64,000 nt of DNA. Origin: Alphaproteobacteria bacterium UBA3768 (GTDB lineage Bacteria > Pseudomonadota > Alphaproteobacteria > CAAHEQ01 > UBA3637). Below the pieces are notes generated by a model that saw only the letters and a program-made list of their open reading frames with translations, had not been told where the DNA came from and made no database searches. The stretch spans positions 29,785 to 93,784 of the forward strand of contig DFFU01000004.1 in assembly GCA_002372315.1 (NCBI GenBank), read 5' to 3'. The position numbers and the translations under genes were made by a program. Each line of letters begins with the position of its first letter. Positions within the stretch are counted from its first letter, which is position 1. Shown piece after piece: positions 7,668 through 8,883 of this stretch.

Positions 7668-7696
7668 TTGACAAAAAATACAAAATATTATAAAAT
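7668..7696 (+). promoter_or_regulatory. sigma70-like promoter (TTGACA-N17-TAAAAT) for the tandem paralog pair
   Basis: read directly in the sequence. Confidence 0.45.
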
Positions 7697-7722
7697 CCTT
7701 TCGTCTTTGCCAGATGAAAGGA
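7696..7722 (+). promoter_or_regulatory. 5'UTR hairpin (TCCTTTC...GAAAGGA) whose 3' arm contains the Shine-Dalgarno AAAGGA of the downstream gene
   Basis: 7-bp perfect inverted repeat with 13-nt loop between the -10 box and the ATG at 7729. Confidence 0.3.
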
Positions 7723-7728
7723 TTTATT

Positions 7729-8292
7729 ATGACAGGTAATAAAAGCGGTTTAACTGATATAGATATTTCTATATTGAATTCCTATCAATATGCGAAAGGA
7801 AAAGTTTCAACTTTGCCAGAAGGAGTTAGGTTTATCGGTGGTGAACTGGATTTAAGAGCTTCATATGTTGATATGATTCCTGCTGGATTAAAGGGGATTG
7901 ATGGTGTTTTTTTCCCCAATTTTCCAAGATTTATTGCGCCAGATTATACAGGGGAAGTTTATGTTGATAGAGGTAATGATGGTCTTTATCGCTTACCTGA
8001 TTTAAAAAGTTATAAGGATCGCTATATTAGATGTCAAAAATTTGTGGAGATGCCTCGTTATTTTAATGGCGGATTGTGTACCTTACCAAATAATATGCAT
8101 TTTTTTAAAGGGGAAAACGGATATTGTTTGGATTTAAGAAAAACTTCCATCAAGTATGCATCTACAATTTCAGGTATTTCAAGAATTATTTGTGAACATC
8201 CTCTTGAGTTTTTTAGACCTGATTTTCCTAAAAAGATTTCCCGTCATAATGGTGTTCAGCTGCCTCATCAAAAAACAAAAATCAAAGAATAA
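7729..8292 (+). CDS. hypothetical protein, paralog A of a tandem pair
   Basis: shares motifs with the next ORF (VDM[IV]PAGLKGI; P[RD][FY]I[AS]PD[YF]; C[TS]LPN[ND]MH; Y.LDL[RT][KR]T; FPKK[IV]; HQK.K); ATG 7729 with AAAGGA RBS preferred over 7714. Confidence 0.55.
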   Translation: MTGNKSGLTDIDISILNSYQYAKGKVSTLPEGVRFIGGELDLRASYVDMIPAGLKGIDGVFFPNFPRFIAPDYTGEVYVDRGNDGLYRLPDLKSYKDRYIRCQKFVEMPRYFNGGLCTLPNNMHFFKGENGYCLDLRKTSIKYASTISGISRIICEHPLEFFRPDFPKKISRHNGVQLPHQKTKIKE

Positions 8293-8307
8293 AAAAGGAT
8301 TTTTCTT

Positions 8308-8883
8308 ATGACACAATATTTATCTAAATTTACTTATGGTGAAAAATTTGAACGTTTACCCGAAAGAATGGAGTTTGATGGGCATGGAGGATTAAGGTTA
8401 GAAGGAACAAAAGTTGATATGGTACCTGCGGGATTGAAAGGGATTACTTTTATTTATTTTACGAAAAAGCCTCGTTATATTTCACCGGATTTTGATGGTA
8501 TAGTTGTGTGCTATGATCCGCAAAGGACTCACCATGCGCTTGATATGGATAAAATGGAAATTGAAACAGCAAAGGCGCGATATACTGCCAATCGTGAAAA
8601 AGTTGAAAAAGCACGTTATATAAAAGAAGAAGATGGTACTTTATCACTTTGTTCTTTGCCAAATGATATGCATGTTTACCATAAATCTTATGAATGTGGG
8701 TATGTTTTGGATTTAACGCGTACCGCTGTTTCTGAAAAACAAAATTTGGGTGGTTTTCATGATATCATTTTATATCCAAAGAAGCCAGTTCAACAAGAAT
8801 TGCCACTCATTTTTCCAAAGAAAGTTGCTCAACATAGAAGACCGCAAATGGTTCATCAAAAGCCAAAAACTTACGATAATTAA
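8308..8883 (+). CDS. hypothetical protein, paralog B of the tandem pair
   Basis: same conserved motifs and length (~190 aa) as 7729-8292. Confidence 0.55.
   Translation: MTQYLSKFTYGEKFERLPERMEFDGHGGLRLEGTKVDMVPAGLKGITFIYFTKKPRYISPDFDGIVVCYDPQRTHHALDMDKMEIETAKARYTANREKVEKARYIKEEDGTLSLCSLPNDMHVYHKSYECGYVLDLTRTAVSEKQNLGGFHDIILYPKKPVQQELPLIFPKKVAQHRRPQMVHQKPKTYDN

Follow-up and report, generated by a model that had tools for sequence, protein, structure and literature searches.

Why do two adjacent genes of no recognisable family stand directly behind a seryl-tRNA synthetase gene, and why is the ribosome-binding site of the first of them buried in a stable hairpin that overlaps a near-consensus promoter? 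Both questions are raised by a locus within a stretch of 64,000 nucleotides (64 kb, hereafter the window) from contig DFFU01000004.1 of Alphaproteobacteria bacterium UBA3768, in which the seryl-tRNA synthetase gene, serS, is followed by the paralogous genes A and B. An earlier note on this DNA had proposed that the hairpin may gate the translation of gene A from within its 5' untranslated region (5'UTR), and that the pair looked as if it had been inserted among housekeeping genes. On balance, a different explanation appears probable: A and B would constitute a two-gene operon of fast-evolving orphan paralogs, transcribed from a sigma-70 promoter of their own (P_A) that is embedded in a hairpin acting as the serS terminator, and their products would be non-enzymatic binding scaffolds.

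The tandem arrangement of the two open reading frames (ORFs) of about 190 amino acids stands as the earlier note had described it, with a 15-nt spacer (8293-8307) that contains the Shine-Dalgarno sequence (SD) of gene B. Homologues and the public gene call place the start of gene A at 7729; a 192-aa reading from the in-frame ATG at 7714 was discarded, as this codon lies inside the hairpin and is not preceded by an SD. No structure was found between A and B, the fold of 8270-8330 amounting to -2.4 kcal/mol (z 0.07), and A and B can thus be considered one operon; moreover, a terminator scan detected no terminator in the spacer or after B. The two proteins are paralogs (36% identity over 184 aa in BLASTP, E=2e-29), and every shared motif block that had been listed for them lines up in their pairwise alignment. 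No third copy of the family was found by tblastn in the window, nor were extra copies found in the loci fetched for comparison. Gene B orthologues are 57-63% identical, with a ratio of nonsynonymous to synonymous substitution rates (dN/dS, omega) of 0.20-0.25, and A and B are real genes under weak purifying selection.

The earlier impression of an unrecognised family is borne out by profile and structure searches of both proteins, which gave no significant match. Scans of Pfam, NCBIfam, PHROGs and PADLOC with A, B and distant members of the family returned nothing significant (in Pfam, nothing at E<=10 for A or B; in PHROGs, two non-significant matches for B, E 0.15-0.17), and Foldseek, run with both models on the PDB and with A also on BFVD, gave nothing at E<1 or TM>0.2. 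AlphaFold2 models built on family alignments (pLDDT 87.8 and pTM 0.78 for A; pLDDT 86.4 and pTM 0.77 for B) predict a fold dominated by short beta strands, with a helical insert at its centre and disorder in the final ~25-30 residues. Relatives are scarce: 49 proteins were found in 5.8e9, and 48 hits in 1.84e9 cluster representatives, of which ~35 are members of 145-225 aa. In a set of 185,579 species-representative genomes the family occurs in three, all of them metagenome-assembled genomes (MAGs) named as uncultured 'Alphaproteobacteria bacterium', one with a record from yak omasum. All relatives come from uncultured gut or rumen Alphaproteobacteria, and none was found in the plasmid, phage and IMG/VR collections; the literature on RF32 gut Alphaproteobacteria and on the overlap of terminators with promoters yielded nothing specific. 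The family of A and B may be described as orphan and clade-restricted, possibly with a new fold. As a separate observation, a metagenomic protein of 294 aa (P0075) has a B-type N-terminus in its first ~46 residues (MTEKQDFSKFKFAEKFERLP...TKIDMIPEGL), followed by an unrelated C-terminal part of ~250 aa with no Pfam match, and may be a fusion or recombinant of the first module of the family.

This module is part of an internal duplication. The profiles of residues 26-80 and 115-166 align with each other (hhalign 97%, E=2.8e-11), and in gene A these N- and C-terminal modules (nt 7804-7968 and 8071-8226, respectively) lie on either side of a helical insert at aa 93-106. Each module is ~50 aa long and follows the pattern LP-x2-[ML]-x-[FY] ... 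LDL-x2-T-x-[VI]-x2-[IV]P-x-GL-x-G[VI]. The residues conserved family-wide are Pro, Leu and Gly together with one Asp and one Thr, which argues for a scaffold rather than an enzyme, and no catalytic-looking set of residues is present among the invariant positions. Neither a signal peptide nor a transmembrane segment was found in A or B. The proteins are basic overall (pI 8.8-9.2), and the disordered tail of gene A (aa ~161-187) is more so, with a pI of 10.6; its motif, K-I-x-x-H-x-G-x-Q-M-x-H-Q-K-x-[KR]-I-K-E, recurs in paralog types whose identity is otherwise only 33-40%.

The closest likeness is to leucine-rich repeat (LRR) proteins, such as SHOC-2 and the effectors YopM and IpaH, whose 24-residue xLxxLPxGxFxxLxxLxxLDLSxNxLxxLPxG units align with k-L-e-r-LP-x2-M ... 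L-D-L-x2-T-x-[VI]-D-M-IPAGL in the family and with which A and B would probably share a binding, non-enzymatic role. The family profile aligned with the designed LRR protein 4psj at E=4.4e-5 and, in weak stretches, with SHOC-2; the LRR_8 protein P0073 was matched at E=6e-9 overall, each single stretch being insignificant. However, A and B differ from LRR proteins in having two ~50-aa modules split by a helical insert and in a threonine that replaces the LRR asparagine. Pfam LRR models matched neither A and B nor the distant members, and the best LRR solenoid in the Foldseek searches of the PDB was fibromodulin (E=1.6, TM 0.16), with none among the hits for A. Another candidate was CBP30, a subunit of the trypanosomatid nuclear cap-binding complex (PDB 9f3f chain 3), which shares PxGxKGxexV ... 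RF/YxxPDxxG ... YI with family profile positions 39-102 over ~65 residues (the PAGLKG...PRYIAPDF...YI segment); with E=0.0025, or 0.02 with a broader profile, and no retrieval by Foldseek, this was set aside as a probable chance match.

The genomic position of the family is fixed, and its sequences are not. All the related genomes that were recovered have a family member directly after serS, in a block SPOR-M50-serS-[family], the serS orthologues carrying the Seryl_tRNA_N and tRNA-synt_2b domains. This includes the distant subfamily (L023, L025), whose members align with A over stretches of 39-90 aa at 27-44% identity, their serS being 80-86% identical. Since this adjacency is present in all relatives, the position of the locus would be ancestral rather than the result of an insertion. 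Thus, the flanks given in the earlier note, serS on one side and a membrane metalloprotease gene on the other, were correct, but the impression of an insertion does not hold, and the GC content of the locus is ordinary. The gene complement varies: the window and L019 carry A and B, L003, L010 and L020 carry other pairs, and L001 and L018 carry A alone at the locus, a B-like copy being located at another site of that genome (UBA3637, L013). Among close genomes, serS has ~95% amino acid identity, dN ~0.03 and omega ~0.025, and the family genes have dN of 0.06-0.72, which is 6-20 times that of serS, and omega of 0.2-0.77. Moreover, L018 is a mosaic: up to ~7575, M50 and serS included, L001 is the sequence closest to it (0.91-0.99 nt identity), and from there onwards, over promoter, hairpin and the greater part of A (~7575-8200), the window is (0.91-0.97 vs 0.75-0.90 for L001). 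Between the window and L018, dS is 0.18 in A and 0.88 in serS. The mosaic indicates that the A cassette was exchanged by recombination.

Downstream of the family genes the neighbour differs, being M50B, ABC-F (L001, L018, L010) or RmuC, and a functional link to the flanking M50-type proteases was dropped, since not all relatives have M50B downstream. In L001 and L010, ABC-F / (ORF) / dUTPase / PGK genes follow the family genes directly, and the short L018 contig shows ABC-F only; in the window, the ABC-F/dUTPase/PGK block lies at 46894-52477, ~38 kb away, and M50B-RmuC stands after A and B instead. Since this block is displaced in the window, the 3' border of the locus appears to be a rearrangement breakpoint. 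In L007 (2486-8670; RGIG9732, a yak omasum MAG), a single family gene is found away from serS within a run of ~9 ORFs without Pfam match (257, 291, 98, 332, 89, 72, 127 and 196 aa), and this run may be an island of lineage-specific genes.

Such an evolutionary pattern brings in the view of A and B as effectors that are exported, or as surface-interaction proteins, on which diversifying selection acts, with the basic C-terminal peptide as an export signal, a view that we regard as possible, if unlikely. Type IV secretion substrates of other Alphaproteobacteria carry a C-terminal export signal. Fast evolution, duplication and recombinational exchange between strains would be expected under this view, as would an LRR-like binding motif and a basic disordered tail that is conserved where the rest of the paralog types has diverged, and the organism has host-directed features (a mucin CysD-like pilin and a fucosyltransferase, described below). 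Nevertheless, the proteins have no signal peptide, the window has no secretion-system gene, and omega stays below 1 throughout. The effector view overlaps with the protein half of the explanation preferred here and does not contradict it.

As for the control of the genes, the near-perfect sigma70 promoter TTGACA-N17-TAAAAT that the earlier note had seen in front of gene A is well founded. It matches the consensus at 11 of 12 positions, and the strict pattern TTGACA-N17-TAnnnT, found eight times in the window against 1.24 expected, is conserved with its fixed 17-nt spacing in at least nine lineages, while the spacer sequence itself varies. The -35 hexamer TTGACA and the spacing are invariant in the six close serS-linked variants and in L012, L013, L023 and L025, L007 having TTTACA. 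Most lineages have a TG extended -10 element; among the seven serS-linked regions it is present in five and absent from the window and L012. From promoter geometry, transcription is predicted to start at G7703, seven nucleotides after the -10 box, and a purine occupies this +7 position in L012 as well as in each of the six close variants linked to serS. This conservation supports P_A as a functional-looking sigma-70 promoter. An internal reference for the promoter and terminator grammar of the source organism is provided by the tRNA-Lys region of the window (19345-19489), where the gene (19384-19459, + strand) is preceded by a promoter with 12/12 consensus positions, TTGACA-N17-TATAAT, ending 11 nt before the tRNA, and followed on its 3' side by a canonical terminator, AAGTCGCCT-GAAA-AGGCGACTT and then a T-run. 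By this 12/12 copy and the enrichment of the strict pattern, the consensus-type promoter is to be taken as real in the source genome.

The inverted repeat that pairs with the SD of gene A is also real, and longer than had been described. It forms a 13-bp stem that begins 30 nt past the serS stop codon (-18.9 kcal/mol, z=-3.6; 0 of 200 shuffles equally stable), and its 5' arm takes in the discriminator and the final 3 nt of the -10 hexamer, the anti-SD filling the 6-7 nt directly after the hexamer. Seven distinct serS-linked intergenic regions were compared (window, L018, L001, L003, L010, L020 and L012), and they share one layout: TTGACA-N17-TAnnnT, the six nucleotides CC[TC]TTC (CTTTCC in L012), the +7 purine, a loop, the SD arm (GAA[AG]GGA; GGAAGGA in L012), a U-rich spacer and the ATG. 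The stem comprises 12-15 bp across the seven (-15 to -20 kcal/mol), and 70 of 72 cells are paired in six of them. Compensatory changes occur at pair 2 (AT<->CG), pair 11 (TA<->GC) and pair 12 (CG<->TA), pair 6 has changed stepwise (TA>TG>CG), and in L012 an additional pair seems, by inspection, to be altered on both sides; the compensatory changes argue that the structure of the hairpin is under selection. A pattern scan of metagenome DNA for the combination of promoter and hairpin returned three loci, of which L015 and L016 were chance matches and one duplicates L003.

What the hairpin is for can be approached through its relation to serS. Runs of 5-7 consecutive T follow it in the relatives, and the scan classed the hairpin of L010, which has a T7 run, as terminator-like. 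Only with serS as the upstream neighbour is the hairpin strong: family genes away from serS (L013, L007) retain promoter, SD and T-run, yet their structures reach no more than -3.2 and -2.3 kcal/mol, and the upstream gene in L013 has a separate GC-rich terminator of its own. In L023, serS is followed by a GC-rich terminator (ACGGGG...CCCCGT, then T7) with the -10 hexamer in its loop and the SD free downstream. This L023 element (3100-3165; GCA_002373815.1, DFKH01000040.1), ACGGGGTG-TATAAT-AGCCCCGT and then T7, is another way of nesting a promoter in a terminator. The T-runs, the loss of the hairpin away from serS and the SD-free version in L023 all indicate an intrinsic terminator of serS, and the hairpin is most likely, as far as comparison of these regions tells, a Rho-independent terminator that overlaps P_A. 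As is usual for intrinsic terminators, it is a stable stem-loop shortly after a stop codon, and its structure is both selected and tied to the upstream gene.

The reading of the earlier note, in which the hairpin is a cis-regulator in the 5'UTR that masks the SD of gene A and responds to temperature, a small RNA or a protein by opening, now seems decidedly improbable. Whenever both arms are present in an RNA, the SD is perfectly paired, the pairing is preserved by compensatory changes, and weak SD-pairing stems are present in the leaders of L007 and L025 too, all of which a riboregulator would account for. However, every variant has its anti-SD arm in the stretch that separates the -10 box from the predicted start. 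Since the predicted start at 7703 is downstream of this arm, the mRNA made from P_A would be unable to form the hairpin. The folding calculations agree with this distinction: the SD of gene A is >99% paired when transcripts read through from serS, transcripts that begin at 7703 leave it ~50% free, and the probability of an unpaired SD at 25-42 C is 0.02-0.73 (0.06-0.69 at 37 C) for RNA of the variants that begins at the predicted start. In read-through RNA this probability is <=0.04 at 25, 37 and 42 C alike, so that the suggestion of a temperature switch fails and an RNA thermometer can be rejected, the stem of -15 to -20 kcal/mol being far too stable and still closed at 42 C. Moreover, family genes with a neighbour other than serS have lost the hairpin, which in L023 is separate from the SD, and scans of Rfam by gathering threshold and by E-value gave no match at the site, only tRNAs or noise (E ~1-9). 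A location within the 5'UTR, marginal stability and membership in a curated RNA family are, thus, all wanting, the first of them as judged by promoter geometry.

Comparison with known systems leads in the same direction. Like intrinsic terminators that overlap the promoter or ribosome-binding site of the next gene, the element has a stem-loop at a short distance from the serS stop, a U-rich tract that is interrupted in the window, covariation and an embedded promoter; it differs in that its 3' arm is the SD, its U-tract the SD-ATG spacer and its 5' arm the discriminator, all within 64 nt. RNA thermometers are mismatched, marginally stable structures within the 5'UTR. With ROSE and fourU thermometers and with translational riboregulators, the element shares a U-/C-rich strand that pairs with the AGGA of the SD, but its stem has 12-15 mostly perfect pairs, remains closed at 42 C and has its 5' arm upstream of the predicted start.

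In the explanation preferred here, the serS terminator would have been compacted into the intergenic space between serS and gene A, so that its 5' arm also supplies the end of the -10 box together with the discriminator, the 3' arm doubles as the SD of gene A and the U-tract as the SD-ATG spacer. A polymerase arriving from serS would transcribe both arms and terminate at the hairpin, and any residual read-through RNA would have the SD of gene A fully masked. Transcripts from P_A would start at ~7703 inside the terminator, lack the 5' arm, escape termination and leave the SD accessible, and A and B would be co-transcribed in them. The element would, in this way, act as an insulator between serS and A-B rather than as a sensor. 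The proteins would be small soluble scaffolds made of two LRR-like modules, a helical insert and a basic C-terminal peptide, and would engage in protein-protein binding with a rapidly changing partner, such as a host, prey, phage or other external one, the tail serving as a common docking or export signal. The coordinates of the features are collected in Table 1.

Table 1. Features of the serS-A-B locus, in window coordinates.
Feature	Position	Strand	Description
serS (seryl-tRNA synthetase)	6372-7664	+	Last gene of the upstream SPOR-M50-serS unit; from the ORF list
Promoter P_A	7668-7696	+	Sigma-70-type; -35 TTGACA 7668-7673, -10 TAAAAT 7691-7696
Hairpin	7694-7728	+	5' arm 7694-7706, loop 7707-7711, 3' arm 7712-7724, tail TTTATT 7723-7728; proposed serS terminator
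SD of gene A, AAAGGA	7717-7722	+	Within the 3' arm of the hairpin
Gene A	7729-8292	+	187 aa; ATG at 7729 with SD AAAGGA 6 nt upstream
SD of gene B, AAGGA	8295-8299	+	8 nt before the ATG of B
Gene B	8308-8883	+	191 aa; two modules as in its paralog A, the helical insert being longer
Peptidase_M50B-like membrane protein gene	8902-9639	-	Convergent neighbour outside the unit; Pfam PF13398, E=1.2e-7

Several points weigh against this explanation. Both the transcription start at 7703 and the termination at the hairpin are predictions; the U-tract is interrupted in the window and in L018 (UUUAUUAU), and the window copy was not called by the simple terminator scan. The U-run between SD and ATG is also present in copies that have no hairpin and, therefore, is by itself no evidence of termination. 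The weak SD-pairing stems of L025 and L007 lie downstream of the predicted start, and some modulation of translation may take place in these leaders. Regarding the proteins, the likeness to LRR proteins is one of motifs, and membership in that class is not established. The role as a binding scaffold with a changing partner is proposed with modest confidence, and no secretion-system genes were seen within the 64-kb window.

A further reading, unlikely as a whole, would go beyond the scaffold explanation and have the proteins of this gut clade adopt a new pseudo-dimeric mini-scaffold fold of two LRR-like modules and belong to a diversifying exported or partner-binding set that undergoes duplication, reshuffling and swapping among strains at a cassette site of fixed position behind serS, with the basic C-terminal peptide as the shared signal for export or docking and the terminator-embedded promoter limiting translation to the transcripts of the cassette itself.

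The constant neighbourhood of serS could also mean that A and B are cytoplasmic accessories of serS or of translation whose basic tail binds, for instance, tRNA or the ribosome, and this is, in our view, quite doubtful. The position 3' of serS is conserved down to a serS identity of 80-86%, the distant subfamily included, and the proteins are basic; nevertheless, their own promoter and the proposed terminator would insulate A and B from serS, extra copies occur elsewhere (L013, L007), the family is absent outside one small clade and its rate of 6-20 times that of serS is unlike that of translation factors. That the pair is the cargo of a mobile element, a phage remnant or a defence island beside serS, as unrecognised genes among housekeeping genes with a differing downstream neighbour (M50B, ABC-F, RmuC) might suggest, is very improbable in view of the ordinary GC content, the lack of an integrase, repeats or a tRNA at the locus borders, the absence of PADLOC matches and of plasmid, phage and IMG/VR relatives, the PHROGs matches only at E>0.1 and the conserved position.

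The window also contains genes with features directed towards a host. A 460-aa protein encoded at 3226-4608 (+) combines a type IV (pseudo)pilin-like N-terminus (...GRSMVEMLCVLAVI...) with a Cys-rich body that matches Pfam PF13330 Mucin2_WxxW, the CysD domain of animal gel-forming mucins, over the full profile (E=1.4e-26); it may serve in host-mucus mimicry or adhesion, or its domain may be derived from eukaryotes. At 48808-49791 (-), an alpha-1,3-fucosyltransferase is encoded (FucT_N E=1.8e-28 and Glyco_transf_10 E=2.7e-17), which suggests fucosylated (Lewis-type) surface glycans in this gut alphaproteobacterium, and an Opacity-family or outer membrane protein (OMP) beta-barrel porin lies within 43-64 kb of the window.

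The regulatory half of the locus is, in the explanation preferred here, ordinary biology that is tightly packed, whereas the protein family is new. Three roles, those of terminator, promoter discriminator and ribosome-binding site, could be combined in a single element of 31 nt, as comparative genomics supports, and an anti-SD hairpin that lies beside a promoter need not be a riboregulator, a point that is useful for annotation without being surprising. The orphan family marks a poorly known clade of gut and rumen Alphaproteobacteria. Its combination of a fixed position with rapid divergence, tandem duplication and allele exchange is unusual for genes that lie between housekeeping genes and makes A and B reasonable candidates for factors of host, prey or phage interaction.

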